The position numbers and the translations under genes are program-made. This document shows, piece after piece, positions 3,421 to 59,837 of a stretch of 60,158 nucleotides of DNA; position 1 is the stretch's first letter, and the number at the start of each line of letters is the position of its first letter. The stretch lies in NCBI GenBank assembly GCA_013202965.1, contig JABMQZ010000235.1:1-60158 (forward strand). Reading direction: 5' to 3'. Under the pieces are notes generated by a model. It made no database searches. It was not told the DNA's origin and worked only from the letters and a program-made list of their open reading frames with translations. The stretch comes from Bacteroidota bacterium (lineage in GTDB: Bacteria > Bacteroidota > Bacteroidia > Bacteroidales > B18-G4).

Positions 3421-3490
3421 GAATTTTGAAATCTGGAGTTTTTTGGGATTTTGGTTCCTGGATTTTGGTTCCTGGAGTTTGTTTTTCCCC
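3421..3490. repeat. Heptamer-periodic word array (10 units), including TTTTGGT TCCTGGA x2
   Basis: In phase: GAATTTT GAAATCT GGAGTTT TTTGGGA TTTTGGT TCCTGGA TTTTGGT TCCTGGA GTTTGTT TTTCCCC. Confidence 0.8.
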
Positions 3491-3536
3491 TATCTTCGTG
3501 ATCCAATAAATTAATAAAGTAATTGGGAAAACCAAT

Positions 3537-5486
3537 ATGGATTACAAGAAATTATGGACCCCTTCTCCGGAGCGCTCGGAGCATTCCGGAATGAAGAACT
3601 ACATGGAGCATGTAAATGAGAAATACAATAAATCATTTAATGCCTATGATGAACTCTTCAGATGGAGCGTAGACAATATTGCGGATTTCTGGGGCTCATT
3701 CTGGCATTACAGTGGCATGGAGTATTCCAAAGACTTCACCACGGTGGTGGATGATCCGAAAAAGATGCCTGGGGCGAAGTGGTTTGAGGGGGCACGATTG
3801 AACTTTGCTGAAAATCTCTTATCCCGCAGGGATGAAAAAACTGCTATTATTTTCAGGGGTGAATCGGAAGTTGAACAAAGGATCAGCTACGCTGAACTAT
3901 ATGATCAGACACACAGGATAGCTGAAGGATTAAGAAAACTAGGTGTCAGGAAAGGAGACCGTGTGGCAGGCTTCATTCCCAATATGCCGGAAGCCATCAT
4001 TGCCATGCTGGCGGCATCCTCCATCGGTGCCATATGGTCTTCTTCATCTCCCGACTTTGGGATCAAGGGTGTGCTGGACCGCTTCAGCCAGATCGAACCA
4101 AAAGTGGTTTTTGCCGCCGACGGATATTATTATAAAGGGAAGATCTTCGATTCTCAGGAGAAGCTGAAAGGCATCCTGGATCAATTGCCTTCCGTTGAAA
4201 ATGTAGTGCTGATCAATTATACAGGTACAACAGAACCTGCTCTCGTACCCAATTCCATAACATGGGAAGACCTTGCCCAACCTGTTGAGGGAGAGATGGT
4301 CTTTGAGCAATTGCCCTTTGAGCATCCGCTCTATATTATGTATTCGTCCGGTACCACGGGCTTGCCGAAGAGCATCGTCCATTCGGCCGGGGGCACCCTG
4401 ATTCAACATCTAAAGGAATTAATGCTTCACAGTAACTTGCAGGAAGATGATGTGATCTTCTATTTCACTACCTGCGGGTGGATGATGTGGAACTGGTTTA
4501 TCAGTAGCCTGACGGTAGGATCTACCATTGTTTGCTTTGATGGCAATCCCTTCCATCCGGGCCCCGATGCCCTGCTGCACATGGCGAAAGAACTGGACGT
4601 TACCATCTTTGGTACCAGTGCAAAATACATTGCAAGCCTTGAAAATGCCGGGGTAGACCCAAAGAATATTTGTGCTTTCCCATCCTTGAAAGCAATTCTT
4701 TCCACCGGCTCTCCGCTTAGCGATGAGAGCTTCGAATATGTATATAAAAAATGGAAAGAGGATGTTCAGTTGTCTTCCATTGCCGGAGGTACCGACATCG
4801 TCTCCTGTTTTATGCTGGGAAACCCGATGCTTCCTGTTTTTATGGGAGAAATACAATGCCGCGGCCTTGGCATGGATGTCGACAGCTTCGATGATTACGG
4901 AAAGAGTATCGTCGGGAAGCAGGGGGAACTGGTGTGTAAATCTGCTTTTCCCTCTATGCCCATATATTTCTGGAACGATCCGGAAGGGAAAAAGTACCAC
5001 GATGCCTACTTTGATGTTTATGACGGTATCTGGCGGCATGGAGATTATATTTTACTCAGCGAACATGGTGGCGTTACCATGTTTGGGCGCTCCGATGCCA
5101 CCCTTAACCCGGGAGGTGTAAGAATTGGCACTGCCGAAATCTATAATGTGGTTGAGAATATGGATGAGATCGAAGACTCGGTGGTTATCGGCCAAAAGTG
5201 GGAAGGTGATGAACGCATATTGCTTTTCGCGAAACTCAATGAAGGATATACGCTGGATGATGAATTGAAGATCAGGATATCCAAACTGATCCGTAGCAGT
5301 TGCAGTCCCCGCCATGTGCCTGCCATCATCATGGAAACCAAAGGTATACCATATACCCTCAATGGCAAGAAGGTAGAGATTGCCGTAAAAAAGGCCTTTA
5401 TGGGGGAGGAGATCAAGAATAAGGATGCCCTGGCGAATCCGGAGGTGCTTGATTTCTATGAAGATATCGGGGAATTGAGCGATTGA
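3537..5486 (+). CDS. Acetoacetyl-CoA synthetase (acetoacetate-CoA ligase, AMP-forming)
   Basis: 649 aa. The N-terminus (LWTPS...FRWSVDNIADFW) is typical of the AACS family. Carries the AMP-binding motif YSSGTTGLPKSIVHS. Confidence 0.85.
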   Translation: MDYKKLWTPSPERSEHSGMKNYMEHVNEKYNKSFNAYDELFRWSVDNIADFWGSFWHYSGMEYSKDFTTVVDDPKKMPGAKWFEGARLNFAENLLSRRDEKTAIIFRGESEVEQRISYAELYDQTHRIAEGLRKLGVRKGDRVAGFIPNMPEAIIAMLAASSIGAIWSSSSPDFGIKGVLDRFSQIEPKVVFAADGYYYKGKIFDSQEKLKGILDQLPSVENVVLINYTGTTEPALVPNSITWEDLAQPVEGEMVFEQLPFEHPLYIMYSSGTTGLPKSIVHSAGGTLIQHLKELMLHSNLQEDDVIFYFTTCGWMMWNWFISSLTVGSTIVCFDGNPFHPGPDALLHMAKELDVTIFGTSAKYIASLENAGVDPKNICAFPSLKAILSTGSPLSDESFEYVYKKWKEDVQLSSIAGGTDIVSCFMLGNPMLPVFMGEIQCRGLGMDVDSFDDYGKSIVGKQGELVCKSAFPSMPIYFWNDPEGKKYHDAYFDVYDGIWRHGDYILLSEHGGVTMFGRSDATLNPGGVRIGTAEIYNVVENMDEIEDSVVIGQKWEGDERILLFAKLNEGYTLDDELKIRISKLIRSSCSPRHVPAIIMETKGIPYTLNGKKVEIAVKKAFMGEEIKNKDALANPEVLDFYEDIGELSD

Positions 5487-5552
5487 ACGATTGAACGATT
5501 GAACGATTGAGCGATTGAGCGATTGAACGATTGAACGATTGAACGATTTTGC
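5473..5552. repeat. Octamer tandem array GATTGA(A/G)C x10, overlapping the stop codon of the preceding gene
   Basis: Units start at 5473, 5481 ... 5545 in the pattern (AAC)3 (AGC)2 (AAC)3, with degenerate first and last units. The TGA stop of the acetoacetyl-CoA synthetase gene (5484-5486) lies inside unit 2. Confidence 0.95.
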
Positions 5553-5573
5553 GATGTATAATAAATATTTTAT

Positions 5574-7196
5574 ATGAAAAAGAAACATCTGCTTTTACTT
5601 TCGCTGCTTTCCGGTCTGCTCCTGGCGTTGGCCTGGCCCAGAGACGGATTTCCCGGGCTCTTGTTCGTGGCATTCATCCCCTTTCTTTATCTGGAGGACT
5701 ATATCAGCAATAACCGGCAAAACTTTCATCGTTTCAGCGTACTCATGTATTCCTGGCCGGGATTTTTGGTGTGGAATGTGCTTACGACCTGGTGGATATG
5801 GAATTCAACAGAAGGAGGAGCGCTGGGAGCTGTCATTGCCAATTCATTTTTCATGGCATTGGTGCTCAATATTTATTCCATCAGCAAAAAACATATTTAC
5901 GGAAAAAGTCACGGGTATTTTATCCTTCCTTTTTACTGGATCAGCTTTGAATACTGGCACCTGAACTGGGACATGAGCTGGCCCTGGCTGAACCTCGGCA
6001 ATGCTTTTGCTGCATACCCTGAATGGATACAGTGGTATGATTATACAGGGGTTTTTGGCGGGACTTTATGGATACTGCTGGTTAATATTATATTTTACAG
6101 GCTGATCGTCCTTGGATGGACAAAGCAAAAAACCGGCAGGAATAAGCTCATCTGGGGTTCCTTGTCAGCTGTGGCTTTGCTTATTCCCCTTATCATTTCA
6201 ATTATCATGTACACCGGATACAAGGAGGAAGACCGGCCGGTTGAGGTTATAATTACACAGCCCAATTTAAATCCCTATACCGAGCAGTACACACTTCCAC
6301 CCTTTGAGATCATTGACAAAAACTTTGACCTTGCCCGGACACTGATAGATGAAAATACCGATTTTGTAATTTGTCCGGAATCTTCCATCCAGGAAAATAT
6401 CTGGGAACACCGCCTGAATACCAGTCCCGGCTTGAATTATGTAAGGAAATTCATTGAGGAATATCCTCATGTGGGACTGCTTATCGGGGGATCTACCTTT
6501 AAGGAGTATTTTGATGGTGAAGAAGTATCGCCGACTGCGCGCAAATTCATGGATGCAGAAGCGTATTATGATGCATATAATACCGTATTTTTCATTGATT
6601 CATGCTATCAGTTTGAGGTTTACCATAAATCAAAACTTACTCCAGGAGTGGAAAAAATGCCTTTTCCCCAGTATTTTAAATTCCTTGAAAATTATGCCAT
6701 TGACCTTGGCGGGACTGTAGGCAGCCTTGGAACCGATGAAGAGCGGAAGGTTTTTATTACCCGGGATGATTCACTCGGGGTGGCAGCGGTGATCTGTTAT
6801 GAATCAATTTATGGTGAGTTTATCGGGCGCTTTGCAAGAAATGGAGCAGAGCTGATCTTCATTGTTACCAATGATGGCTGGTGGGGAAATACCCCCGGGC
6901 ACCGGCAGCATTTTATCTATTCACGCCTGCGCGCTGTTGAAACCCGCCGTAGCATAGCACGCTCAGCCAACACAGGTATTTCGGCCTTTATCAATCAAAG
7001 AGGGGATATTCTTCAGCAATCCGGATATTGGGTGCCTGCTGTCCTGAAACAAAGCATCAATGCCAATGACCGCATCACCTTTTATTCAATGTACGGGGAT
7101 TATCTTGCCCGGATCGCGGCATTCATATCAGTGATGCTCTTACTGATCACCATCAGCATGATCTTGCGGAAGCGGGGGATCAGAGGGATTCATTGA
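5574..7196 (+). CDS. lnt: Apolipoprotein N-acyltransferase
   Basis: 540 aa. Multi-pass membrane N-terminal half, then a CN-hydrolase domain (VICYESIYGEF, IVTNDGWWGNTPG). Confidence 0.85.
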   Translation: MKKKHLLLLSLLSGLLLALAWPRDGFPGLLFVAFIPFLYLEDYISNNRQNFHRFSVLMYSWPGFLVWNVLTTWWIWNSTEGGALGAVIANSFFMALVLNIYSISKKHIYGKSHGYFILPFYWISFEYWHLNWDMSWPWLNLGNAFAAYPEWIQWYDYTGVFGGTLWILLVNIIFYRLIVLGWTKQKTGRNKLIWGSLSAVALLIPLIISIIMYTGYKEEDRPVEVIITQPNLNPYTEQYTLPPFEIIDKNFDLARTLIDENTDFVICPESSIQENIWEHRLNTSPGLNYVRKFIEEYPHVGLLIGGSTFKEYFDGEEVSPTARKFMDAEAYYDAYNTVFFIDSCYQFEVYHKSKLTPGVEKMPFPQYFKFLENYAIDLGGTVGSLGTDEERKVFITRDDSLGVAAVICYESIYGEFIGRFARNGAELIFIVTNDGWWGNTPGHRQHFIYSRLRAVETRRSIARSANTGISAFINQRGDILQQSGYWVPAVLKQSINANDRITFYSMYGDYLARIAAFISVMLLLITISMILRKRGIRGIH

Positions 7197-7202
7197 TAAT
7201 TT

Positions 7203-7331
7203 CTAATTTTCTGTGACGATCAGCTTTCCTGCAGTAATAATGCCTGGTTCAGAAACCACCCTGTAATAATAAATGCCTGCGTGCAGATCACTAAGTCTGT
7301 GATGATCTGTAAGGGTAAAGGAAGTAATTTA
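7203..7331 (-). pseudogene. Relic of a T9SS C-terminal sorting domain: only the last ~40 codons, with no start codon
   Basis: The minus-strand frame reads ITSFTLTDHHRLSDLHAGIYYYRVVSEPGIITAGKLIVTEN*. The stop is TAG (plus CTA at 7203-7205). LxDLxxGIYYYRV...GKLIV is the canonical end of a T9SS type A sorting domain. An in-frame TAA at 7329-7331 closes it, and only about 70 nt remain before the next gene. Confidence 0.5.
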
Positions 7332-7404
7332 ACACTCAAAATTTAAAATTCAACACCCAACATTGTCCGCCGAAGCTTTAGCGTAGGTGGAACACTTAAA
7401 ACTC
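7331..7404. repeat. Heptamer word array interrupted by a conserved hairpin core (core 7362-7390, minus orientation)
   Basis: Left flank AACACTC AAAATTT AAAATTC AACACCC AACATTG. Core GTCCGCCGAAGCTTTAGCGTAGGTGG. Right flank AACACTT AAAACTC. The same word type occurs on both sides of the core. Confidence 0.8.
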
Positions 7405-9824
7405 TATTCATATTTAATCGCATTCACAGGGTTAGAAGATGCTACCTTGATAATATGGAAGCTGATACTGAGCATTCCTACGGCAAGTGACATCACTCCT
7501 CCAAGAATAAATGCGAATACCCCAATCTCAATATGAAATGCAAAATTTTCAAGCCACAGGTCCAGTACATACCATGCAACAGGAATGGCAAGAATAAAAG
7601 CAATTCCGATCAGGATGGCAAACTCTTTGTAAAGCAGCCTGATGATGTTGGCCATGGAAGCCCCAAAGATTTTCCTGAGGCCAATCTCTTTTGTACGTTG
7701 TTCGGCAATGAAAGATGAAAGTCCCAAAAGCCCGAGCAAGGCAATGAATATGGTTAGCATGGTGGCGATACTGAAGATCATCCCAAGGTTCTTTTCCGCC
7801 GTATACATTTCATCCCATGTTTCTTCAAGAAAACGATAGTTAAAGGGCCTGTTAGCACCAAAATCATTCCATTTTTCTTCAATGAAATCAATGGTTTCGC
7901 GCAAATTTTCGCCATTGATCCTTATACTTAAATCGCTTTTATTGAAATCAGCCATGAACATCATTTGCTTTTGGACCTTGTTATGCAGGGATCTGAAGTG
8001 GTAATCTTCAATTACCCCGATTACCTTCATCTTCCGGCCTCCACTGCCATCCAGTTCAAAACCCCAGTGTATGGTCTTTCCGATGGGATCATCTTCCCAG
8101 TCGTAAGTTTTTACCAGTGTTTCGTTTACGATCACAGCTTCCTCAGCATCCGTTCCCATGTTTTCGTCGAAAAACCTTCCCTGCTTTAGTTTAATATCAT
8201 ATAAGTCAAAATAATGATAATCGACAATGGTGATGATGCTCGCCTCATCGATCCAGCCGGTGTCTTTTTCCATCCTCACTACCTGTATCCAATTATTTCT
8301 GCCAGGAATACCTATTGAGTTTGTAACCCCAAGGATGTCAGGATTTTGTAACAATTCCTCACGAAACATAGGTGCTTTTGCTCTGAAAGCACTGTCCTGT
8401 AATTCCAGGATCATCATGTTTTCCATGTCAAAACCGAGGTCTTTATTCCTCAGGTAAGATAATTGTTGTGAAACGATGATGGTTCCAATGATCATTGCCG
8501 TGGCGATAAAAAACTGGAAAACCACCAGGATCTTTCTAAGTATACCGCTTCCTCCGGTTTTGGAAACAGCCCCTTTCACTACTGTTACAGGGTTAAAAGA
8601 TGAGAGGTAAAATGCTGGGTAGCTTCCTGAAATAATACCTATGATCGTAGCAATAATAATGATACCAATGATGAAGACAGGATTCAGGAAAATATCGTAA
8701 GTCACGCTTTTCCCGGCCAGCAGATTAAAATCAGGTAATAATAAATAAACAAAGGCCACAGCAATTACCAGCGAGATATAACTTAGCATAAGAGATTCGC
8801 CAAGGAACTGCCTGATAAGTTGTCCTTTGTAAGCCCCGGCGACCTTTCTGATACCTACTTCCCTTGCCCGTTTGGTAGAGCGTGCAGTTGCCATATTCAT
8901 ATAATTAATAGCGGCAATAAGCAGAATAAACATAGCTATAGCAATGAATATTAATATAAAAGCTTTGTTTCCTTTCGGCTGATCAGATGAAAGATTATCT
9001 GAAAAATGCTGTTCTGTCAATGGTGTAGACATCAATTCATAACCGGCATTGATCTGATCACCGATATCTCTCATATATTTATCATAGAACTCCGGAAACT
9101 TCTCATGAATACTTCCCATGTTGCTATTTTCATTAAGCATGAGGTAGGTGTATACGCCTATATTCCAGAATCTTGCGGGCTCCATGCTGTTGAATTCCTC
9201 TTCACCGGCTTCTGCGGCCAGGGTCGTTCCAGAGATCAGGGCATCAAACCTTAAATGAGAATTGCTTGGTACGTCTTCTATTACCCCGGTAACTTTGAAC
9301 TGCCTGCCGGATCCTGACTCAAGGATCTTCCCCATCGGGTCTTTATCGCCAAAATACTTTTCAGCAATTGATTTTGTAAGCACAATGGATAAAGGCTCAA
9401 CAAGGCACCTGTCCGGGTCTCCCATGATCATCTTATGGGTAAATACCTGAAAATAGGTGGAATCGGTGAAATAAAAATCTTCCTCATAAGATTCTTTCTC
9501 TTCGTTCCTGAACAAGGAGTTCCCTGCTCCAAAAATCCTGACGACAGATTCTACCTCCGGGTATTCCAATTGCAGTGCCGGTCCCATTGGGATCGGAACT
9601 ATCGCAAACAGTTCATCTTTCCCGGCAATGGTAAAGTTGGATTCGATACGATGAATTCTTGAAGCATTTTCATGATATTTATCGTAAGATCTTTCATCAT
9701 TTATGTATAAAAACAAAAAGATGAAAGCAATTAATCCCACAGATAATCCGAGGATATTCAGGAATGAATAAAACTTATTTTTTACAATATTCCTGAATGC
9801 GCTTTTAATATAATTACTAATCAT
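7404..9824 (-). CDS. ABC transporter permease, FtsX/MacB family
   Basis: 806 aa. Two 4-TM FtsX-type modules, each preceded by a large periplasmic domain. Paralog of 10661..13072, with the same N-terminus (IKxAFRxxxKxKxYSxxN) and C-terminal tail (NPVxxIKYE). Confidence 0.85.
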   Translation of the reverse strand: MISNYIKSAFRNIVKNKFYSFLNILGLSVGLIAFIFLFLYINDERSYDKYHENASRIHRIESNFTIAGKDELFAIVPIPMGPALQLEYPEVESVVRIFGAGNSLFRNEEKESYEEDFYFTDSTYFQVFTHKMIMGDPDRCLVEPLSIVLTKSIAEKYFGDKDPMGKILESGSGRQFKVTGVIEDVPSNSHLRFDALISGTTLAAEAGEEEFNSMEPARFWNIGVYTYLMLNENSNMGSIHEKFPEFYDKYMRDIGDQINAGYELMSTPLTEQHFSDNLSSDQPKGNKAFILIFIAIAMFILLIAAINYMNMATARSTKRAREVGIRKVAGAYKGQLIRQFLGESLMLSYISLVIAVAFVYLLLPDFNLLAGKSVTYDIFLNPVFIIGIIIIATIIGIISGSYPAFYLSSFNPVTVVKGAVSKTGGSGILRKILVVFQFFIATAMIIGTIIVSQQLSYLRNKDLGFDMENMMILELQDSAFRAKAPMFREELLQNPDILGVTNSIGIPGRNNWIQVVRMEKDTGWIDEASIITIVDYHYFDLYDIKLKQGRFFDENMGTDAEEAVIVNETLVKTYDWEDDPIGKTIHWGFELDGSGGRKMKVIGVIEDYHFRSLHNKVQKQMMFMADFNKSDLSIRINGENLRETIDFIEEKWNDFGANRPFNYRFLEETWDEMYTAEKNLGMIFSIATMLTIFIALLGLLGLSSFIAEQRTKEIGLRKIFGASMANIIRLLYKEFAILIGIAFILAIPVAWYVLDLWLENFAFHIEIGVFAFILGGVMSLAVGMLSISFHIIKVASSNPVNAIKYE

Positions 9825-9920
9825 GATTGCTGGACTTTAATGATGACAATGGTATTCATATATGGGCTTCATAATAAAAATGATTATGTGCAATGAGAAC
9901 ATCTGGACGAGACGCCCTCA

Positions 9921-13563: not shown

Positions 13564-13684
13564 AAGTTTTGAGTTTTAAGTTTTGAGTGTTTCTCCCCAC
13601 CTCTAATTTTCCATCTCTCTGATTCTCTGATTCTCTGATTCTCCCCGTACTCCAAGTCACAAAGTCTCCCCGTCTCCAATTCTC
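13564..13684. repeat. Word array inside the exporter operon: 7 heptamers (13564-13612), then 9 octamers (13613-13684)
   Basis: Heptamers: AAGTTTT GAGTTTT AAGTTTT GAGTGTT TCTCCCC ACCTCTA ATTTTCC. Octamers: ATCTCTCT GATTCTCT GATTCTCT GATTCTCC CCGTACTC CAAGTCAC AAAGTCTC CCCGTCTC CAATTCTC. The plus strand is pyrimidine-rich. Confidence 0.85.
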
Positions 13685-30054: not shown

Positions 30055-30118
30055 CCACAGTCTCAAAGTCCCACAGTCAAATAGTCTCTTAGTCCCCCAA
30101 TCTCCCAGTCTCTAAACT
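30055..30118. repeat. Octamer word array (8 units), NNNNAGTC on plus and GACTNNNN on minus
   Basis: CCACAGTC TCAAAGTC CCACAGTC AAATAGTC TCTTAGTC CCCCAATC TCCCAGTC TCTAAACT. It abuts and overlaps the sprA stop codon. Confidence 0.9.
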
Positions 30119-38232: not shown

Positions 38233-38332
38233 GTGACTATGAGACTATGAGACCAGGAGACTGAGGGACCAGCAACCAGTACACCTATGCTAAAGCTTCG
38301 GCGTACGAAGTAACCAGCAACCAGCAGCCAGT
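38233..38332. repeat. Octamer array (38235-38282, GAC(T/C)NNNN) and ACCAGCA/AACCAGC heptamers flanking a conserved hairpin core (38282-38310)
   Basis: Octamers: GACTATGA GACTATGA GACCAGGA GACTGAGG GACCAGCA ACCAGTAC. Core: ACACCTATGCTAAAGCTTCGGCGTACGAAG. Then AACCAGC AACCAGC AGCCAGT. ACCAGCAACCAG occurs on both sides of the core. Confidence 0.85.
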
Positions 38333-44689: not shown

Positions 44690-45782
44690 ATGGTTTCACA
44701 GGAAGATATAAAAGCATTGAATAAGAGGATTGAAGCCTTGAGGAGGTTCCTTTGACATTGACAGCAAAAAAAGCCTGATTGAAGAAAAGGAAAAGATTAC
44801 CTTCATGCCTGAGTTCTGGAATGACCCAAAAAAAGCTGAGGAAGTTCTGAAAGAGATAAAGTCAATAAAATTCTGGACAGAAGCGTATAAGAAGGTAAGT
44901 AATGTATTTGATGATCTGCAGGTCATCTTTGAGTTTTTCGGCGAGGGAGAGGGAAGCGAAGCAGAGCTTGAAAATCAGTATGCCAAAGCCCTTAAGGCTG
45001 TTGAAGATCTTGAGTTTACAAATATGCTCAGCGGTGAGGAAGACAAACTGGGAGCCATATTGCAGATCAATGCCGGAGCCGGAGGTACTGAAAGCCAGGA
45101 TTGGGCTGAAATGCTCATGCGCATGTATTATCGCTGGGGGGAACGCAATAATTATAAAGTGAAAGAACTTGAAATGAGTGAAGGGGAAGTGGCCGGGATC
45201 AAGTCTGTATCCCTTGAATTTGAAGGAGATTTTGCTTTCGGTTACCTGAAAGCCGAGAACGGTGTCCACCGTCTGGTTCGCCTGTCTCCCTTTGATTCCG
45301 CGAGTCGCCGGCACACTTCCTTTGCCTCGGTTTATGTTTACCCTGTGGTAGATGAGAGTATTAAAATTGAAATAAATACATCCGATATCACATGGGATAC
45401 ATTTCGGGCAAGCGGGCCCGGTGGGCAGAATGTGAACAAAGTGGAAACTGCAGTCCGCTTGCGGCATGGACCTTCCGGACTGGTCATTGAATGCCAGGAA
45501 ACACGATCCCAGGGACAAAACAGGGAAAAAGCATTGCGCATGCTGAAATCTCAGCTTTATGAAATTGAAATGAGAAAGAAAAAAGAAGCCCAGGCTGAGA
45601 TCGAAGGGAATAAGAAAAAAATAGAATGGGGATCACAGATCAGGTCTTATGTGATGCATCCTTATAAAATGGTCAAAGACGTACGTACCGGGCATGAAAC
45701 CGGGAATGTCCAGGCCGTAATGGATGGCGACCTGAATGATTTTATTAAAAGCTATTTGATGCAGTTTGGGCAAAACCAGTAG
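44690..45782 (+). CDS. prfB: Peptide chain release factor 2, with programmed +1 ribosomal frameshift: join(44690..44752, 44754..45782)
   Basis: Frame 0 reads [21 protein letters not shown], then in-frame TGA at 44753-44755. The +1 frame continues [22 protein letters not shown]... into track ORF 44805..45782. SPF (VRLSPFDS) and GGQ (GPGGQNVNK) motifs are present. Confidence 0.93.
44741..44756 (+). promoter_or_regulatory. prfB +1 frameshift cassette
   Basis: AGGAGG TTC CTT TGA C: an SD-like element, a 3-nt spacer, then the slippery CTT followed by TGA C. The layout matches the classical AGGGGG TAT CTT TGA C. Confidence 0.9.
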
Positions 45783-45935
45783 AATAAAGAACATGGAATA
45801 ACGAACAAGGAATGAATTTTAGATAATACTTCGAACTTCGTGCCCCCTCCATTCTCGAAGGGGAGCCTGTCCCGCCACAGGCGGGAGGGACAGGGGGTGG
45901 GTAAAAGGAACAAGGAACAAGGAAGAAACCAGAAC
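45783..45935. repeat. Heptamer arrays (45783-45817 and 45901-45935) flanking a GC-rich hairpin block (about 45866-45894)
   Basis: Left: AATAAAG AACATGG AATAACG AACAAGG AATGAAT. Right: GTAAAAG GAACAAG GAACAAG GAAGAAA CCAGAAC. Between them: CCTGT CCCGCC ACA GGCGGG AGGG ACAGG. Confidence 0.85.
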
Positions 45936-50247: not shown

Positions 50248-50303
50248 TCGCTTCTCGATATTCGATATTCGTTTCTCGATATTCGATTCGTGTCTCGATT
50301 CTC
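50248..50303. repeat. Heptamer array (8 units) built on TCGATAT
   Basis: TCGCTTC TCGATAT TCGATAT TCGTTTC TCGATAT TCGATTC GTGTCTC GATTCTC. It abuts the stop codon of the gene ending at 50302. Confidence 0.9.
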
Positions 50304-51613: not shown

Positions 51614-52588
51614 ATGATATCCCTCGTTCAAATAAAGGAACCTGTAAAGGAACATATTGTTGAGTTTGAGAAGCACTTCCGTGCTTCCATGAAGAGCAAT
51701 GTACCCCTTCTCGACAGGGTGACAGGGTTCATCGTAAAACGAAAAGGTAAACAGATACGGCCTTTATTCGTTTTCCTGTCGGCTGAGATCGCCGGAGGTG
51801 TGAATGAATCCACATACCGGGGGGCTTCCCTCGTTGAATTGTTACATACGGCAACACTTGTTCATGATGATGTGGTTGACGATTCCAATGAGAGGAGGGG
51901 ATTTTTTTCCATCAATGCTTTATGGAAAAACAAGATCTCTGTACTTGTCGGAGATTATCTGTTGTCAAAGGGCTTGCTGTTATCGCTTGACAACAACGAT
52001 TTCGAACTGCTGAAGATTGTTTCCGATGCAGTCAGGGAAATGAGTGAAGGGGAACTTCTTCAGATTGAAAAAGCCAGAAAACTGGATATTAAAGAAGATA
52101 TCTATTACGAAATCATTCGCAAGAAAACGGCCTCACTGATCGCATCATGCTGTGCCTGTGGAGCGTATTCTGCCGAAGGTGATGAAATTGTTAGCGGGCA
52201 GATGAAACTTTTTGGAGAGAAAGTCGGCATGGCTTTTCAGATCAAGGATGACCTGTTCGACTATCAGAAGCTTAACAATACAGGCAAACCTTCCGGGATA
52301 GATATTCGCGACAAGAAAATGACACTTCCACTGATTTATCTGCTCAATAATTCTGACAGATCCGGAAAGCGCCGGATCATCAATACGATCAATAATCACA
52401 ATACGGATCCGGATAAGGTCGCCGAACTGATCAAAAAGGTAATCGATGGCGGAGGGATAGATTATGCCCACGATAAAATGCTGAAATATCGTGAAGAGGC
52501 CATCAGCATTCTGAATACCCTGCCGGAGTCCCCTGCCCGAAAATCCATGGCTGACCTGGTTATATTCACCACGGAAAGAGACAAATGA
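51614..52588 (+). CDS. Polyprenyl diphosphate synthase (long-chain, IspB-like)
   Basis: 324 aa. Two Asp-rich motifs, LVHDDVVDDS and FQIKDDLFDY. Confidence 0.9.
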   Translation: MISLVQIKEPVKEHIVEFEKHFRASMKSNVPLLDRVTGFIVKRKGKQIRPLFVFLSAEIAGGVNESTYRGASLVELLHTATLVHDDVVDDSNERRGFFSINALWKNKISVLVGDYLLSKGLLLSLDNNDFELLKIVSDAVREMSEGELLQIEKARKLDIKEDIYYEIIRKKTASLIASCCACGAYSAEGDEIVSGQMKLFGEKVGMAFQIKDDLFDYQKLNNTGKPSGIDIRDKKMTLPLIYLLNNSDRSGKRRIINTINNHNTDPDKVAELIKKVIDGGGIDYAHDKMLKYREEAISILNTLPESPARKSMADLVIFTTERDK

Positions 52589-52686
52589 TTGTCGATTGTT
52601 GATTTCGATATTCGTTATTCGATATTCACCTCACCCCCCCCATCCCCCCATCCCCTCTTCCAGCATCCAGCATCCAGCATGCAATT
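52589..52686. repeat. Heptamer word array (14 units) starting immediately after the stop codon
   Basis: TTGTCGA TTGTTGA TTTCGAT ATTCGTT ATTCGAT ATTCACC TCACCCC CCCCATC CCCCCAT CCCCTCT TCCAGCA TCCAGCA TCCAGCA TGCAATT. Confidence 0.9.
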
Positions 52687-52727
52687 TTTCCCAGCTGCCT
52701 GAGTTATTTATGAGATAGCTCTTCCTT

Positions 52728-53294: not shown

Positions 53295-53358
53295 GAAGTG
53301 CCTGATGCCTGGGGAAGAATTAATCCCGATTTCTGTTATCTTTGGAAAAAATATTAAT

Positions 53359-53973
53359 ATGAAGAAATCCATCCTCTCAATATTCTTAATATCCTTTTTC
53401 ATTATTGGATATGCACAAAAATTTGATGGCGGTGCAATGATCGGTATGGCGGCCAGCCAGGTTGCAGGCGACCGGTATTCAGGTTTTAATAAAGTTGGGC
53501 CGCTTGCAGGATTCTTTGTTAATTTCCAACCGGCCGAACGCTCATCTTTCCAGTTTGAGTTGTACTATGTTCAGAAAGGCAGTAAGAAAAATGCCAACTA
53601 TGCTAAAGGTGATGATGAATCCTACCTGCTGCGCCTGAATTATGTTGAAATGCCTTTGCTGTATAAACTTCATTTCGGCCGCTTTGCCATTGAAGCAGGA
53701 CCTTCACTGGCTTTTTTTATGGGTGGATATGAAGAAACAAACAGTGAGGACGTAAAGGCAGATGATTTTGCAGCAATGACATTCCAGCTTAACCTGGGTG
53801 TGGCTTTCAATATTACGGAAAACTGGATGGTCGACCTACGAACGAATAATTCTTTCACCAACCTCAGGAATGAGAGCCACACCGGGCATGTTTACCGTCT
53901 TGGCTCCTATGGGCAGTTCAATGATGTGCTCATGATAAGCCTGGTCTACCAGTTTTTTCATTTCGGAAAATAG
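53359..53973 (+). CDS. Outer-membrane beta-barrel (porin-family) protein
   Basis: I trimmed the ORF to the ATG at 53359 (MKKSILSIFLISFFIIGYAQ). Alternating beta-strand pattern, and an aromatic residue close to the C-terminus (...SLVYQFFHFGK). Confidence 0.7.
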   Translation: MKKSILSIFLISFFIIGYAQKFDGGAMIGMAASQVAGDRYSGFNKVGPLAGFFVNFQPAERSSFQFELYYVQKGSKKNANYAKGDDESYLLRLNYVEMPLLYKLHFGRFAIEAGPSLAFFMGGYEETNSEDVKADDFAAMTFQLNLGVAFNITENWMVDLRTNNSFTNLRNESHTGHVYRLGSYGQFNDVLMISLVYQFFHFGK

Positions 53974-54038
53974 GGAGGCAGAATTAGTTGAAATGGTTAA
54001 ATCAGTGACACTGGCTGAGGGTGTAAGCCGCCCACCGC

Positions 54039-54974
54039 CTACTGCCCAATGCCTTGTTCAATATTCCTTTTCAGTCTCTCATACCCTGTTCTTTCAACAG
54101 CAGTACCCTTAAAAAGTTCAGTAAAAGAGTCTTCATTCAGCCTTTCCCAGCCCGGGTCGTCCATGTCAAGGAATGCTTGTTTAGCTTTGAAAGCTGCTTC
54201 CTTATGAGGGAGGGAAAAACGGTTCCATGGGCATACATCCTGGCATATGTCGCAACCGAATACCCAGCCGTGAAGACTGTTTCCATTTTTATCCGGAAGC
54301 TCACCTTTATGTTCAATGCTAAGATAGGATATGCATTTCCCAGCATCAATAATTCCGGGGCTGATGATGGCCTGGGTAGGGCAGGCATCCACACAGCGCT
54401 TGCAATTGCCGCAATAATCATTCATTTCAGGCTCATCATAGGATAGATCGAGCCCGGTGATAATTACTCCTATAAAGAAGAAAGAACCCTTATCCCTGTT
54501 TATCAGACAGCCATTTTTCCCTATCCACCCCAGGCCGCATTTTTTCGCCCATGCTTTTTCCAAAACAGGCGCAGAGTCTACAAAAACACGGGCAGAGATC
54601 TCCCCGATCTCATCTTCAATCCTGAAAACGATCTGCCTTAGCTTTTCTTTGATCACATCATGATAATCCTTGCCGTATGCATATTTTGCAAATTTGTATT
54701 GGGTGTCGGGATTTTGAGTTTCTGCAGGGAAATAATTATAAAGTACGATGATCACCGAGCGCGCCCAATCATTTAACAAAACCGGATTCAGGCGTTTCTC
54801 AACATTCCTGTTCATATAACTCATCGTGGCATGATAATCCTTGCTAAGCCAGTCTTTCAGGATAGCAGATTCTGCATCCAGATGTGCGGCAGGGGCAATA
54901 CCACATGCATCAAAGCCATTTTCTTTAGCAGAATCTTTGATTAGTTTACTGATCTTATCCTTGATTTCAGACAT
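54039..54974 (-). CDS. queG: tRNA epoxyqueuosine(34) reductase
   Basis: 311 aa. Two ferredoxin-type clusters, CGNCKRCVDACP and CDICQDVCPWN. Confidence 0.9.
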   Translation of the reverse strand: MSEIKDKISKLIKDSAKENGFDACGIAPAAHLDAESAILKDWLSKDYHATMSYMNRNVEKRLNPVLLNDWARSVIIVLYNYFPAETQNPDTQYKFAKYAYGKDYHDVIKEKLRQIVFRIEDEIGEISARVFVDSAPVLEKAWAKKCGLGWIGKNGCLINRDKGSFFFIGVIITGLDLSYDEPEMNDYCGNCKRCVDACPTQAIISPGIIDAGKCISYLSIEHKGELPDKNGNSLHGWVFGCDICQDVCPWNRFSLPHKEAAFKAKQAFLDMDDPGWERLNEDSFTELFKGTAVERTGYERLKRNIEQGIGQ

Positions 54975-54982
54975 GGCTGTTG

Positions 54983-56008
54983 CTAGTCGAAGAGATCAGG
55001 ATGACTGCCTCCTTTGATCCTTCCCAGGTGCTTATATGCATTTTCAGTGGCTTCACGTCCACGCGGTGTCCGCATCAGGTAGCCTTCCTGTATAAGGAAA
55101 GGTTCATAAACCTCCTCTATCGTACCCCTTTCTTCTCCAACGGCAGTGGCAATGGTACTGATCCCCACCGGGCCTCCCTTGAACTTGTCAATGATAGTTA
55201 GCAGGATTCTGTTGTCCATTTCATCCAGGCCGTTCTTGTCGACATTGAGCGCCAGGAGGGCAATGCGTGCAATTTCCAGGTCAATCACACCACTGCCTTT
55301 TATTTGTGCAAAGTCTCTTACTCTTCGCAGAAGAAGATTCGCTATTCGGGGTGTTCCCCTGCTGCGCCTTGAAATTTCTATGGCTGCATCATTTTCCATG
55401 TGGACCTTCAGGATGCCTGACGATCTGTTCAGTATCTTTTCCAGGGTCGGGGAGTCATAATATGATAATCTGAGGTTGATCCCGAAACGGCTTCGGAGAG
55501 GAGCCGTTAGCAATCCTGAACGGGTTGTTGCTCCAATCAGTGTAAAAGGATTGAGTGCAATCTGAACACTGCGTGCATTAGGGCCGGATTCAATCATGAT
55601 ATCGATCTTGAAATCCTCCATGGCGGCGTAAAGATATTCTTCCACGACCGGGCTCAGGCGATGGATCTCATCAATGAACAGTACATCATGTTCCTCAAGG
55701 CTGGTAAGCAATCCGGCCAGGTCTCCGGGCTTGTCGATCACCGGACCGGAGGTGATCCTGATACTCGCACCAAGCTCATTGGCAATGATATGGGAAAGGG
55801 TGGTTTTTCCCAGTCCTGGTGGCCCATGTAACAATACGTGGTCAAGTGCCTCGTCTCTTTGTTTTGCTGCTTCGACAAAGATCTTCAGGTTTGCCACCAC
55901 TTTGGCCTGTCCTGAAAATTCAATGAATTCGGCCGGCCTCAGGACTTTTTCTAATTCAAGCTCTGCCTGACTGAGATGCTCTCCCCCCGGATCAAGATTT
56001 TCGTTCAT
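54983..56008 (-). CDS. ruvB: Holliday junction DNA helicase RuvB
   Basis: 341 aa. Walker [10 protein letters not shown] and Walker [11 protein letters not shown]. Confidence 0.97.
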
Positions 56009-56156
56009 GAATGAATAATTAATTCTAGATATACAAAACTACAAAATCCATTGTTGTATGCCTAAAATTGAAAATATTTTGCAATAAAAGCCTTGCGAAA
56101 TTAGTTTAATTTATGTATTTTTATTATTTTAGCATGGGATAGTGAATTCTTAAGTC

Positions 56157-56990
56157 ATGAAAAACCTGCTGGTAGCCATCGATTTTTCCAGAAATGCGAT
56201 CCAAGCTCTTGAGTATGCCCTCATGTATGCAGATCGTTTTAATGCAGATATATCACTGATCTGGGTGGATAATTGTATCGGACCCGACCTGATGGTAGAA
56301 AGAGCAGATGGTGAATCCCGCTATGAATCCCGTGAACTTTTAAAGGAGATCATAGATAAATATCAAAGCAAATTCCAGAAAAGGAACATCAACTTTAAGC
56401 TCAGGAAAGGAAAGGTGTACGAGGAAATTTCAAAGCAGGCCAAAAAAAATGGTTCTGATCTGATCTTTGCAGGAACACACGGAATTACCGGTTTTGAAGA
56501 ATATTGGATTGGCAGCAATGCCTACCGTATTGTTACACATGCTCCTTGTCCTGTGGTTACCCTCCGTCAGGATTTTAAGTTTGGCAAGACTGTCAAAAAC
56601 ATACTTATGCCTATTGATGGCTCGATGCAGTCAAGCAATAAAGTGAAAATTACTGCTGATATTGCAGAAGCGTTTGGGGCAGAAGTTCAGGTGTTGGCTT
56701 TACATACATCCAAACTTGGCTCATTGAGAAGACAGGTAGATAAACACCTGGGCATTGTAAAGGAGCATCTGGATAAAAATAACATAAATCATACTATTAG
56801 TGAAGTCAGCACTAAAAACCTGACACAGGATACCATTGATTTTGCCGCCAAAAATAAGGTTGACCTGATTACCATCATGACAGAACAGGAAACAACACAG
56901 GCCAATGTTTTTCTGGGAACTTTTGCGAGGCAACTGGTCAATAATTGCCCGGTGCCGGTTCTGAGTATCCGGACATCGGTGGTGGGTTAA
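56157..56990 (+). CDS. Universal stress protein (tandem UspA domains)
   Basis: 277 aa. Carries LIFAGTHGITGFEEYWIGSNAYRIVTHAPCPVVTL. Paralog of 57453..58301. Confidence 0.85.
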   Translation: MKNLLVAIDFSRNAIQALEYALMYADRFNADISLIWVDNCIGPDLMVERADGESRYESRELLKEIIDKYQSKFQKRNINFKLRKGKVYEEISKQAKKNGSDLIFAGTHGITGFEEYWIGSNAYRIVTHAPCPVVTLRQDFKFGKTVKNILMPIDGSMQSSNKVKITADIAEAFGAEVQVLALHTSKLGSLRRQVDKHLGIVKEHLDKNNINHTISEVSTKNLTQDTIDFAAKNKVDLITIMTEQETTQANVFLGTFARQLVNNCPVPVLSIRTSVVG

Positions 56991-57006
56991 ATTTAATATC
57001 AACAGC

Positions 57007-57441
57007 ATGCGTTTATCCGGACTTATATTGATATTTATCTTAAGTGCAATGTCTGTGAATTTATTCTCGCAGGCAGATGGGAATGGCCATGTCGTAATCG
57101 TTCAGGATCCCAGGATTGACACCATACTGACTAAGCACCTTGAGATGAATGAGGCTCTCTTGTTGAATGCTGATAACTATGCAATTGATGGATACAGGAT
57201 CCAGATATTTGAGGAATCAGGCAATAAATCCAGTACCAGGGCCCGTGAAGTAATGTCAGAGTTTTCCTCCAAATACACCGATATGCCCATCTACCTGACC
57301 TGGCAGGCACCAAATTTCAAGGTCAGGGTGGGAGATTTCAGGACAAGGATGGAGGCAGAAGGCTTTCTAAGGAAAATTAAAAGAGATTACCCCATCGCGT
57401 GGGTGATCAGAGATAAAATAAAATTTCCGAGTATCAACTAA
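57007..57441 (+). CDS. SPOR domain-containing protein
   Basis: Signal peptide. C-terminal GYRIQIF...FKVRVGDFRTRMEAEGFLRKIK, which is a SPOR-like pattern. Confidence 0.75.
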   Translation: MRLSGLILIFILSAMSVNLFSQADGNGHVVIVQDPRIDTILTKHLEMNEALLLNADNYAIDGYRIQIFEESGNKSSTRAREVMSEFSSKYTDMPIYLTWQAPNFKVRVGDFRTRMEAEGFLRKIKRDYPIAWVIRDKIKFPSIN

Positions 57442-57452
57442 AACATACGGTT

Positions 57453-58301
57453 ATGAAAAAAATATTAGTTGCCATCGATTTTCTTGACTGCTCAATCAAT
57501 GCCCTGGCACATGCTGTTTCCATTGCAGAAAAAGCGGGGGCTGATATCGAAATGGTTTGGGTAAACATGCCCGATCATTCCAAAGAAATATTTAAATGCG
57601 ATCCTGATTCCCTGCTCATTGAGGTTGAAAAACGCTTCCATGAACTGATCGAAGATTTTGCTCCTGAAATGGGCAAAGGGAAGATGAGCTTTAAGATCAA
57701 AGACGGGAAAGTATATCGTGAAATTGTTAATGAATCTGAGGAGTACGGAGCTGATCTGATCGTTGTTGGAACCCATGGCTCTTCCGGTTTTGAAGAGTTT
57801 TGGATTGGCAGCAATGCCAATAAGATCGTTTCTGCTACTGACAAGCCGATCATCACAATCAGGGGAGGGATAGATATACAGCGGCCATTGAACAAGATCG
57901 TGCTGCCGCTCGACAGCACTGTTGAAACACGGCAAAAGCTACCCTTCACTACTGAACTGGCAAAAATTCACGATGCAGAAATTCATGCTGTTTCTATTTA
58001 TACTGCCAAAGTATCCGACATTCGGTACAGGGTGGATACCTATACCGACCAGGTAATTGAATATCTGGAAGAAGTTGGAGTTAAGTACGTGAGGACTGCC
58101 ATTGAAACCAGCAATCTGACCAAGGCAACCATTGGTTATGCTGAAAAGATCGATGCCAATATGATCTCCATCATGACCGAACAGGAACGGACCACCGCCA
58201 ATCTCTGGCTCGGCCCATTTGCCCAGCAGATGGTGAATCATTCGCCATTCCCGGTGCTCAGCATCCATCCCAGGGAGCTGATAAGGTCATTGACCAGATA
58301 G
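57453..58301 (+). CDS. Universal stress protein (tandem UspA domains)
   Basis: 282 aa. Carries LIVVGTHGSSGFEEFWIGSNANKIV. Confidence 0.85.
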   Translation: MKKILVAIDFLDCSINALAHAVSIAEKAGADIEMVWVNMPDHSKEIFKCDPDSLLIEVEKRFHELIEDFAPEMGKGKMSFKIKDGKVYREIVNESEEYGADLIVVGTHGSSGFEEFWIGSNANKIVSATDKPIITIRGGIDIQRPLNKIVLPLDSTVETRQKLPFTTELAKIHDAEIHAVSIYTAKVSDIRYRVDTYTDQVIEYLEEVGVKYVRTAIETSNLTKATIGYAEKIDANMISIMTEQERTTANLWLGPFAQQMVNHSPFPVLSIHPRELIRSLTR

Positions 58302-58336
58302 GCCGCTTGTTGAATGTGTGGTAATTGAAAATTAAA

Positions 58337-58372
58337 AAGGGATGCCATCCTTATAGGGATGGCATCCCTTTT
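58337..58372. terminator. Bidirectional intrinsic terminator between usp (+) and fba (-)
   Basis: 14-bp stem AAGGGATGCCATCC / GGATGGCATCCCTT, flanked by an A-run and a T-run. Confidence 0.85.
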
Positions 58373-58392
58373 ATTAAAGTGGTGAATATCAG

Positions 58393-59466
58393 TTAATTCC
58401 TGTTTATGCAATTCAGATCCTCAAAAGCGACTTTAAGTCTTTCAATAATGCTGATTTCGCCTTCACGCAGCCATTTGCGCGGATCATAATACTTTTTGTT
58501 CGGTTTATCTTCACCTTCAGGGTTGCCGATCTGGCTCTGCAGGAAGTCATTGTATTTCTTTGCATACCCATGCACCCCATCCCAGAATGCCCATTGGGTG
58601 TCAGTGTCGATGTTCATCTTGATCACCCCATAGGAGATGGCTTCACGGATTTTTTCCGGGGCAGAGCCGGAGCCACCATGGAAAACAAAATCCAAAGGTT
58701 TTGGCCCGGTACCATATTTTTCCTCAACATATTTCTGGGAATTGTGAAGGATGAGCGGCTCAAGTTTCACATTACCAGGCTTATAAACACCATGAACATT
58801 CCCGAATGAAGCAGCAATGGTAAAGCGATCACTGACTTCTCTCAACTGTTCAAATGCATAGGCCACATCTTCCGGTTGGGTATACAGTTTGGAGCTGTCA
58901 ATATCTGTATTGTCAACACCATCTTCTTCCCCACCGGTAATGCCCAATTCAATTTCTAATGTCATGCCCAGCTTTTCCATCCTGATAAAATATTCTTTAC
59001 AAGTTGCGATATTTTCTTCCAGTGGTTCTTCGGAGAGGTCGAGCATATGGGAAGAAAACAATGGTTTGCCATGGGCTTCAAAAAATTCTTCTCCGGCTTC
59101 CATCAGCCCGTCGATCCAGGGGAGAAGCTTGCGTGCTGCATGGTCGGTATGCAAGATCACAGGCACGCCGTAATAATCGGCCATCTGATGTATATGCATG
59201 GCCCCGGAAATGGTTCCTGCAATGGCGGCTTCCATTCCGGAAACCCCTTTGCCGGCATAAAAAGCACCACCGCCGTTAGAGAATTGTATGATCACCGGAG
59301 AATTCACGATTTTGGCTGCTTCCAACACGGCGTTGATGGAATTGCTTCCCACCACATTCACTGCCGGAATGGCAAATTCATTGGCTTTTGCGATACGGAA
59401 TATTTCCTGGACATCGTCTCCTGTCACTACGCCCGGACTGACTTTATCAAAGATCTTTTCTGACAT
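58393..59466 (-). CDS. fbaA: Class II fructose-bisphosphate aldolase
   Basis: I trimmed the ORF to the ATG at 59466 (MSEKIFDKV...). Carries HTDHA and FHGGSG motifs. Confidence 0.93.
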   Translation of the reverse strand: MSEKIFDKVSPGVVTGDDVQEIFRIAKANEFAIPAVNVVGSNSINAVLEAAKIVNSPVIIQFSNGGGAFYAGKGVSGMEAAIAGTISGAMHIHQMADYYGVPVILHTDHAARKLLPWIDGLMEAGEEFFEAHGKPLFSSHMLDLSEEPLEENIATCKEYFIRMEKLGMTLEIELGITGGEEDGVDNTDIDSSKLYTQPEDVAYAFEQLREVSDRFTIAASFGNVHGVYKPGNVKLEPLILHNSQKYVEEKYGTGPKPLDFVFHGGSGSAPEKIREAISYGVIKMNIDTDTQWAFWDGVHGYAKKYNDFLQSQIGNPEGEDKPNKKYYDPRKWLREGEISIIERLKVAFEDLNCINRN

Positions 59467-59564
59467 GATTTTTAGCTGTTTATTTGTTAGCAAATTGAAG
59501 GGGTAAAGGTAGTAAAATCCTTTCAGATTGACGAGGCTGCTTATTGGGGTTTATTCGTTTAGTT

Positions 59565-59725
59565 GTCAGGTATGAGGTACGGGGGACGGGGGACGGGGGA
59601 CGGGGTTAAGGAGTTCCGAGTGCCTAGTTCCGAGTTCCTGGTGAAGAATTTAAGTGTGGAGTGATCAGTATCGAATGTAGAATTCATTTAAAATTTAAAA
59701 TTCAAAACTTAAAACTGCAATTTAC
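59565..59725. repeat. Heptamer word array, 23 consecutive units
   Basis: GTCAGGT ATGAGGT ACGGGGG x3 ACGGGGT TAAGGAG TTCCGAG TGCCTAG TTCCGAG TTCCTGG TGAAGAA TTTAAGT GTGGAGT GATCAGT ATCGAAT GTAGAAT TCATTTA AAATTTA AAATTCA AAACTTA AAACTGC AATTTAC. The periodicity is obvious for units 1-11 and 18-23 and weaker for units 12-17. Confidence 0.85.
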
Positions 59726-59733
59726 TATCTTTG
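59726..59733 (+). promoter_or_regulatory. Candidate -7 promoter box (TAnnTTTG) upstream of tRNA-Arg
   Basis: TATCTTTG lies 104 nt upstream of the mature tRNA 5' end. Confidence 0.3.
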
Positions 59734-59780
59734 CACTCACCTATCGAAAATCGTCAATCACATCGAAAATCGACAACCGA

Positions 59781-59810
59781 CCCGCCTTCGCTAAAGCTAC
59801 GGCGGACAGG
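59781..59810 (+). repeat. Conserved hairpin core (third copy), embedded in ATCGACA-type words
   Basis: CCCGCCTTCGCTAAAGCTACGGCGGACAGG. It aligns with 38282-38310 (+) and 7362-7390 (-) around the invariant GCTAAAGCT. Confidence 0.8.
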
Positions 59811-59837
59811 CAATCGACAATCGACAATTTCCGAATG

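Follow-up and report, generated by a model that had tools for sequence, protein, structure and literature searches.

We found that the intergenic gaps of a 60,158-nt stretch of the Bacteroidota contig JABMQZ010000235.1 (hereafter the window) hold head-to-tail arrays of 7- and 8-nt units, which differ by whole units between samples and relatives and recur, with the same two unit lengths, in many related Bacteroidota. We consider it probable that these arrays are hypermutable repeats resembling the long simple sequence repeats (LSSR) and short tandemly repeated repetitive (STRR) elements of other prokaryotes, driven by slippage and limited by what the local sequence tolerates, with a length preference for 7-8 nt that plain slippage does not explain.

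An initial annotation of the window had listed 14 such tracts, in about 10 of 45 intergenic gaps. The lag autocorrelation that it proposed, run here on all intergenic gaps of at least 40 nt (6,002 nt in all) against 200 dinucleotide shuffles, gave an excess of matches at lags 7 (z 5.8), 8 (z 5.3), 14 (z 4.5) and 21 (z 3.0); lags 3 and 4 were raised too (z 4.5 and 4.1), lags 5 and 9-13 were flat, and coding DNA carried the 3-nt codon signal only. A sliding scan (28 nt wide, at least 68% lag match, lags 4-12) returned eight lag-7 and five lag-8 tracts, all 13 of them intergenic although non-coding DNA makes up only ~10% of the window; a single tract each was returned for lags 4, 9, 11 and 12, and none for lags 5, 6 and 10. 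Tandem Repeats Finder (TRF) independently recovered the array cores, and the 8 kb that precede the window add six more lag-7 tracts, with none at other lags (contig L167 of the same genome, upstream; L numbers label comparison loci and contigs). The in-phase match of the listed tracts at lag 7 or 8 is 0.49-0.90, where ~0.3 is expected, and 12 of the 14 are individually significant (P <= 0.03) against shuffles of the tract itself, corrected for the best of the nine lags 4-12, while two fall short when taken alone, 7391-7404 with P 0.11 and 45783-45817 with P 0.09. Arrays are present in about 10 of the 31 gaps that are at least 40 nt long; a crude open reading frame (ORF) call puts the total number of gaps at 41.

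Contigs of the JGI samples 3300032608 and 3300032737 and of the Logan assemblies SRR28106079 and SRR28106059 are 99.9-100% identical to the window across the arrays, which amounts to independent support from four samples and two assembly pipelines. Because these independent assemblies carry the same arrays, the arrays are not assembly artefacts, and the claim that the tracts are real, of period 7 or 8 and intergenic is borne out by shuffle tests, sliding scan, TRF and independent assemblies alike.

How do the arrays change over time? Contig L082, from another sample, is identical over 7.6 kb except for a single additional TTCGATA unit at 52604. The metagenome-assembled genome (MAG) L001, at 92% nucleotide identity, keeps the 13564-13684 array with insertions or deletions (indels) of 7 and 17 nt, the sole multi-nucleotide intergenic indels in a 17.4-kb alignment, while L003 (74% identical) retains the gaps, with the arrays at 13564-13684 and 30055-30118 gone. 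Copy number thus varies among samples and close relatives, with one case observed within a population. A metagenome scan with the polyprenyl synthase found no relative closer than 81% and no conserved downstream synteny, and was of no help for the turnover analysis. Within the arrays, TRF reports higher-order units of 14, 16 and 21 nt, which show that blocks of two or three units have been duplicated. Short-read contigs of other samples end in or beside arrays: at 5554 (contig L168), at 38285 and 38306, at 52580, 52654 and 52716, and at ~60040-60080. The unit gain, the indels relative to L001, the loss in L003, the block duplications and the contig ends together show the arrays behaving as slippage-prone tandem repeats do, which are born, expand, decay and are lost. 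Of the two possibilities that the initial annotation had left open, an unusual mutational process or a functional role, the former is favoured by the one-unit difference, the unit-sized indels, the turnover in L003 and the arrays inside protein linkers described below.

Two of the tracts are less regular than first described. The supposedly gap-free arrays of 23 heptamers (59565-59725) and 14 heptamers (52589-52686) are in fact chains of unrelated arrays of three to four units each (Table 1), with period 8 at 52636-52655; in both, the in-phase similarity is down to background by lag 28 (four units), along 59565..59830 from a lag-7 match of 0.61, and a single in-phase array of 23 units is ruled out. 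The strong strand asymmetry, which had been read as a feature of the arrays, is a by-product of repeating a short word: the absolute GC skew is 0.50 in the arrays, 0.56 in random intergenic 7- and 8-mers repeated in tandem by simulation and 0.23 in ordinary intergenic DNA, and asymmetry as a genuine property of the arrays is ruled out.

Is the preference for 7 and 8 nt common to related genomes? We analysed 80 Bacteroidota loci fetched via PolA (1.46 Mb) and 80 fetched via the polyprenyl synthase (0.84 Mb). The former contain 91 lag-7 and 47 lag-8 tracts and between 1 and 6 at each of lags 4-6 and 9-12, the latter 35 and 7; over both sets (2.3 Mb) there are 126 tracts of period 7 and 54 of period 8, with few elsewhere except for 20 at lag 14, a harmonic of 7. 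The same scan of a 50-kb stretch of E. coli yielded no tract. Array density is patchy: many 22-kb loci have no tract at all, and others, Draconibacterium orientale (L070) among them, reach 4-7 per 10 kb.

The arrays had been said to occur in every context. Co-directional, convergent and divergent gaps are indeed all represented, but not evenly: among 130 intergenic tracts of the window and the related loci, 87 are co-directional (76 expected), 27 convergent (17 expected) and 16 divergent (37 expected; chi-square P 7e-5), and 63 abut a stop codon where uniform placement predicts 38, while start-abutting arrays equal expectation (25 vs 25). As to phase-variation (contingency) repeats, in which a unit change within a promoter or reading frame turns a gene, typically a surface or virulence gene, on or off, the window arrays are flanked by housekeeping genes and have the placement just given. 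The sense strand in co-directional gaps is purine-rich in a ratio of 53:34 (P 0.05), a weak bias without a consistent orientation, which speaks for slippage. In 51 of the 63 stop-abutting arrays G exceeds C on the sense strand, a 51:12 bias that is confounded, as arrays containing a stop define their own stop and many cases are orthologous arrays downstream of polA; C-rich tracts resembling Rho-utilisation (rut) sites are ruled out by it. Predicted folding is slightly weaker in arrays than in other intergenic DNA (-0.119 vs -0.152 kcal/mol/nt), and the four strong hairpin-plus-T terminators of the window all lie in array-free gaps. Scans for sigma-70 promoters and terminators showed no overall enrichment, an Rfam scan matched the tRNA-Arg alone at the gathering threshold, with no family overlapping the arrays, and permissive Rfam scans of two array gaps returned chance-level matches only.

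The arrays are not confined to gaps in every genome. Periods of 7 and 8 nt had been called incompatible with coding, which does not hold strictly: relatives translate arrays in frame-preserving blocks within polA and lnt, in parts of the proteins that are disordered or form loops. The polA genes of L034-L050, L070 and L078 have an intact frame and are 35-86 codons longer than that of the window, and their arrays fall in the linker between the 5' nuclease and 3'-5' exonuclease domains, where they are translated as 7- or 8-residue repeats (FTISPSND x6, SEIRNLK x6, LTNLPTYQ x3); in several genomes, these internal arrays use words of the same genome's intergenic arrays. Arrays of TTCAAAA/TTCAATA inside lnt (L070 4877-4983, L040 1977-2038) encode KIQNSKF-type repeats (KIQNSKF x2), and the same word family occurs in ORF-called sequence of seven further loci, which may or may not be lnt. 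Judged from these sequences, arrays seem to be made without regard to context, and this favours an origin by mutation over a site-specific regulatory role.

Based on these observations, we propose the following course of events. A short word in non-essential DNA would be duplicated, and slipped-strand mispairing during replication or repair would then gain and lose whole units or blocks of two to three units. Point mutations would decay old units and variant units would be re-amplified, and it is because of this decay and re-amplification that a gap would end up as a patchwork in which short young arrays lie beside decayed ones. Efficient amplification would be limited to units of 7-8 nt in this clade, as if by a ruler, and selection would clear arrays from coding and promoter DNA, so that they would accumulate in operon spacers and 3' of genes, where they would reach as far as the stop codon. 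Changes in length might alter expression incidentally; the evidence gives no sign of a dedicated function, and the arrays may well lack one.

Several observations weigh against this proposal. Plain slippage explains neither the sharp optimum at 7-8 nt, with periods 5, 6 and 9 nearly absent, nor the recurrence of words without shared flanks: an identical word is shared by 10-11% of the array pairs separated by over 300 nt within one locus, about ten times the 0.6-1.3% for pairs between loci. Only a single copy-number polymorphism was seen, the arrays being otherwise identical over the four samples. Across all loci, strong terminators are rarer in array-bearing 3' gaps (4/87 vs 91/758, P ~0.04), a marginal deficit that hints at a role of the arrays at 3' ends, but would be expected just as well if arrays simply filled gaps devoid of other elements. 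Finally, many divergent genomes carry an array straight after the polA stop, with words that differ between genomes, and this persistence could reflect function. In L033-L053, L070 and L078, the post-polA arrays lie at ~12.7-13.0 kb, where ...GCGCATTGA is followed by the array; the position is kept while the words turn over.

Could the arrays instead be multivalent sites for a protein that binds single-stranded nucleic acids with a footprint of ~7 nt, of the cold-shock-domain or S1 type, and tune translation, mRNA stability or termination? We regard this as unlikely, if still worth serious thought. A role in binding cold-shock protein (CSP), S1 or Csr was proposed for TAACTGA repeats (PMC4679880), a protein-binding role was likewise proposed for Nostoc heptamers, and TTTTGAA/TTCAAAA repeats in Nostoc are reported to have reporter effects (preprint 10.1101/2022.06.06.494920). 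The location at gene boundaries, the excess at stop codons, the slightly weaker folding, the scarcity of strong hairpin terminators, the recurrence of words within a genome and the persistence after the polA stop would all agree with such sites. However, a single 60-kb window holds many unrelated words, the orientation to transcription is only weakly biased, the G-over-C bias is confounded (by stop ascertainment and non-independent polA orthologues) and opposite to that of a Rho-utilisation site, the arrays are depleted in divergent, promoter-bearing gaps, they are lost in the 74%-identical L003, and the same arrays sit within ORFs of relatives.

In L078, the octamer GGGTRACA occurs in seven arrays over 23 kb on both strands, and these seven share no flanks and have no terminal inverted repeats; in the host genome, the words TCGATAT, CCAGCA, TTTTAAG, TTYAAAA, GGATTTT and AATCGAM are each found in at least two gaps. 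Carriage of arrays by elements like MITEs (miniature inverted-repeat transposable elements) is ruled out by the absence of shared flanks in L078 and by a window-wide repeat search that yielded only the arrays and a hairpin; CRISPR, with repeats of 23-50 nt and unique spacers, is ruled out by the contiguous 7-8-nt units and by the lack of an Rfam CRISPR match at the gathering threshold. On both counts the initial annotation was right. We speculate that the arrays, rather than being debris of passive slippage, could stem from a particular molecular machine whose ruler is fixed and which would seed each genome's own preferred words at unrelated sites including polA and lnt; candidates would be a variant repair or replication enzyme, a sequence-specific nickase or a small target-duplicating mobile hairpin element. 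We think this quite improbable, but if true, identifying such a machine would account for the dominance of period 7 among the tandem repeats of prokaryotic intergenic DNA.

The hairpin deserves attention in this respect. Its conserved 30 nt (GTnCGCC-GNA-GC-TTTA-GC-NNN-GGYGnAC) are predicted to fold into a hairpin whose outer stem has 6-7 bp and is followed by an internal loop (3 x 3), an inner GC/GC stem and a TTTA loop, and all three copies in the window (Table 1) split an array, with the same word on either side. The breaks that had been noted between 7331-7365 and 7391-7404 and between 38235-38282 and 38312-38332 are copies of this one hairpin; when the 31 nt at 38282-38312 are excised, ACCAGCA runs in phase again as an array of five units. 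A covariance model of the hairpin detected a few further copies among the polyprenyl-synthase loci, one of them (L133, 2404-2437) again within an array, but none among the PolA loci. An exact-pattern scan of IMG/VR gave 21 matches on 19 stretches of 42-71% G+C, often as inverted doublets (doublets were seen in L184, L178, L182 and L186) and flanked by heptamer arrays in four cases. Over 36 copies from 23 sources (including L173-L191), 94.8% of pair cells are standard, compared with 31-43% when the partner is slid, and four of the nine pairs show compensatory changes. The hairpin has no Rfam match, no PLSDB plasmid match above chance and no counterpart in the literature searched by sequence. 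By sequence it looks like a small mobile element of the REP/REPIN type with a preference for arrays as targets: like REP/REPIN elements (PMC3116915), it is short, palindromic and extragenic, lies dispersed and frequently occurs in inverted doublets. Unusually for REPs, it is conserved over contigs of 42-71% GC, and the likeness ends with the hairpin, as the arrays themselves are non-palindromic and without shared flanks. The hairpin, again apart from the arrays, may also be compared with the small dispersed repeats of cyanobacteria, reportedly described by Elhai in 2008. No RAYT-type transposase turned up in the 68 kb of host genome at hand, in which no search aimed at RAYT was made.

Although the hairpin could in principle have a part in the origin of arrays, most arrays lack it and the polymorphism observed is a clean unit gain. 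We therefore hold it distinctly improbable that a dedicated or mobile-element process, be it a ratchet of 7-8-bp target duplications, as a small element inserts and excises time after time, or a sequence-specific nicking or templated-addition enzyme with preferred words to amplify, made the arrays. Discrete unit lengths, genome-specific word families without shared flanks and a hairpin lying between copies of the same word in three window arrays, and again in L133, L173, L177, L180 and L185, would fit such a process. Against it, the sole polymorphism involves no element, slippage is a better fit than duplication of single targets for the 14-, 16- and 21-nt higher-order units and for the near-perfect array of 10 copies, a reading of the hairpin copies that lie outside arrays reveals no 7-8-nt duplication that consistently flanks them, the flanking words are those that insertion into a pre-existing array would leave, and no transposase or candidate enzyme was identified. 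That the tracts are chance similarity or an artefact of assembly or polishing, as the two individually non-significant tracts and the frequent contig breaks might suggest, is a negligible prospect given the shuffle controls, a signal exclusive to intergenic DNA and, among the lags, to 7 and 8, the identity over independent assemblies and the orthologous array in a different MAG (L001).

Slippage-prone repeats of this kind have precedents. The initial annotation recognised no described element class in the arrays; however, intergenic heptamer repeats are known as STRR, as LSSR and as TAACTGA-type repeats (PMC4679880, PMC4692102, PMC6344855). Heptamers were the most abundant intergenic tandem repeat in a SPADE survey of 7,006 prokaryotic genomes, with no known function (PMC6344855), and Mrazek, Guo and Shah (2007), as cited in PMC4679880 and PMC4692102, found heptanucleotides to be the most abundant LSSR in most genomes and proposed slippage tied to the length of DNA held by the polymerase. 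MacGregor (2015) reported heptamer direct repeats, TAACTGA among them, from Beggiatoaceae, 15 cyanobacteria and five Bacteroidetes, with close relatives lacking arrays and Elizabethkingia contigs ending in repeats (PMC4679880); further heptamers are GGGGAYT in Nostoc (PMC4692102) and GGGAATC in Xanthomonas, and an STRR within the cyanobacterial RNase P RNA gene is indicated by a title cited in PMC2858038 (Vioque 1997).

The window arrays have head-to-tail units within the 5-11 nt of LSSR and STRR-like repeats, beyond chance, and are intergenic at many dispersed loci. Because no named word is tandem in the window, they are, on sequence grounds, members of the prokaryotic intergenic heptamer/octamer class by unit length and not of any word-defined family. 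With the LSSR and SPADE heptamers they share the 7-nt units, the mostly intergenic location at many loci per genome, the patchy distribution over phyla, slippage as the proposed mechanism and the lack of a known function; they differ in their host, an uncultured Bacteroidales lineage, and in that octamers are almost as frequent. This near-equal octamer share is the main documented difference from the published class, and we found no published description of it, Mrazek 2007 being known here via citing papers only; on heptamer or octamer repeats of Bacteroidota, a search of the literature yielded nothing beyond MacGregor 2015. As in cyanobacterial STRR, the heptamers are intergenic, a few word families recur per genome, arrays of different words adjoin each other and tolerant sites in genes are invaded, polA and lnt of relatives being the parallel; the Nostoc word TTCAAAA is also found in several Bacteroidota loci. 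The phylum differs, however, the window has no tandem copies of GGGGATT or of the STRR1-3 words, HIP1 is absent and sigma-54-dependent regulators are encoded; STRR in the strict sense is ruled out, given a Bacteroidales host and no tandem CCCCAGT, TTGGTCA or CAACAGT in the window. TAACTGA repeats resemble the arrays in being intergenic heptamers near start and stop codons, with relatives devoid of arrays and contigs ending inside repeats, but here no word dominates and placement is mainly stop-proximal, without a preference for sites upstream of starts; TAACTGA itself occurs as three single copies and no doublet in the window, and as no doublet in the 160 related loci.

The cause and function of what published surveys give as the commonest intergenic tandem-repeat period in prokaryotes have been in question since 1990. 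What is added here is no new class, but an uncultured Bacteroidales genome and many related Bacteroidota that are rich in arrays with a sharp 7/8-nt spectrum. Any mechanism is constrained by the genome-specific words without shared flanks, the translated invasion of tolerant stretches in essential genes and the insertion of a hairpin into arrays. In practice, the arrays fragment short-read metagenome assemblies, represent indel hot spots usable for strain typing and are able to shift stop codons and spacer lengths.

Table 1. Arrays and hairpin copies in the window, and arrays inside polA of related loci.
Position	Strand	Feature	Units	Context and support
3421..3490		weak heptamer tract	GGATTTT, found again 8 kb upstream of the window (L167 3772-3810)	47 nt upstream of acetoacetate-CoA ligase start; lag-7 match 0.49, P 0.02
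3446-3481		core of 3421..3490	GGATTTTGGTTCCT (14-nt unit) x2.6	TRF score 65
5473..5552		octamer array, the cleanest (family D1)	GATTGARC x10	TRF 9.4 copies, 95% matches; lag-8 match 0.90; begins within last codons of acetoacetate-CoA ligase gene and provides its TGA stop (5484-5486); occupies spacer up to lnt (start 5574)
7331..7404		heptamer array	AACAYYY/AAAAYTY	convergent gap, abuts ABC permease stop (7404); interrupted by hairpin; 7331-7365 lag-7 match 0.64, P 0.003; excising 7366-7390 keeps heptamers in phase
7362-7395	+	hairpin copy 1		covariance model R1, 47 bits
13564..13684		heptamers 13564-13612, then octamers 13613-13684	AAGTTTT/GAGTTTT; TCTCTGAT x3.5, degenerate thereafter	between two minus-strand genes; TRF; P 0.03 (heptamers), P 0.0005 (octamers); identical in L172
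30055..30118		octamer array	NNNNAGTC x8	convergent gap, runs into sprA stop codon (30117); lag-8 match 0.62, still 0.50-0.62 at lags up to 48; L083 and L084 carry an identical array
38235..38332		octamers and heptamers	GACYNNGA; ACCAGCA	divergent ruvA/malic-enzyme gap; interrupted by hairpin; P 0.0025 and 0.0065 for the two tracts
38276-38309	-	hairpin copy 2		covariance model R1, 46.4 bits
45783..45935		arrays at both ends of spacer	5' GAATAAAGAACAAG (14-nt unit) x2.3; 3' AAGGAAC x2.9	prfB stop (45782) to arsC-family start (45937); TRF; 45901-45935 lag-7 match 0.75, P 0.0005
50248..50303		heptamer array, 21-nt higher-order unit	TCGATAT/TCGTTTC; word found again at 52604-52627 (families D10, D19)	convergent gap, abuts stop at 50302; TRF periods 7 and 21; P 0.001
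52587..52686		chain of four arrays	GATTGTC; TTCGATA; CCCCCCAT (period 8); TCCAGCA	from polyprenyl synthase stop (52588); TRF
59565..59830		array chain	ACGGGGG x4; GAGTTCC x4; ATTTAAA x4; AATCGAA/AATCGAC around hairpin; AATCGAA again at L167 688-770	fba start to tRNA-Arg (59838-59911); TRF
59777-59810	-	hairpin copy 3		by tRNA-Arg; covariance model R1, 45.4 bits
~10.87-11.15 kb		polA-internal arrays		L034, L036, L037, L040, L043, L044, L049, L050, L070, L078

The window is ~43% G+C and ~90% coding, and encodes sigma-54-dependent regulators, ADOP-type permeases, PolA, a B12-dependent ribonucleotide reductase, SprA and other housekeeping proteins. Its PolA is 92% identical to that of the Bacteroidales MAG L001, 77-78% to those of two further MAGs and 60-68% to those of many Bacteroidales and Marinilabiliales MAGs. 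On the strength of PolA similarity, gene content and the absence of HIP1, the host is an uncultured member of the Bacteroidales and not a cyanobacterium; a cyanobacterial origin is ruled out by the missing HIP1 site, the sigma-54-dependent regulators and best polA matches that are Bacteroidales.

Some further features of the window may be mentioned. At 3194-3334, upstream of the acetoacetate-CoA ligase gene, a 68-nt unit with internal palindromes is repeated 2.1 times at 95% identity in all independent assemblies and may be a duplicated regulator-binding region. The prfB gene for release factor 2 (44690-45782) has, behind a GGAGG, the classical site of programmed +1 frameshifting, CTT TGA C (44750-44756); its main ORF, called from 44805, is the downstream frame only. 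An A-run at position 1933, near the 3' end of a carboxylase-subunit gene, differs by 1 nt in length between the window and L167, which is either a homopolymer polymorphism or a sequencing error. Directly 3' of the last array, the tRNA-Arg gene (CCG anticodon, 59838-59911) is followed by the hairpin AAATAGCCGCTCTCGAGCGGCTATTT.

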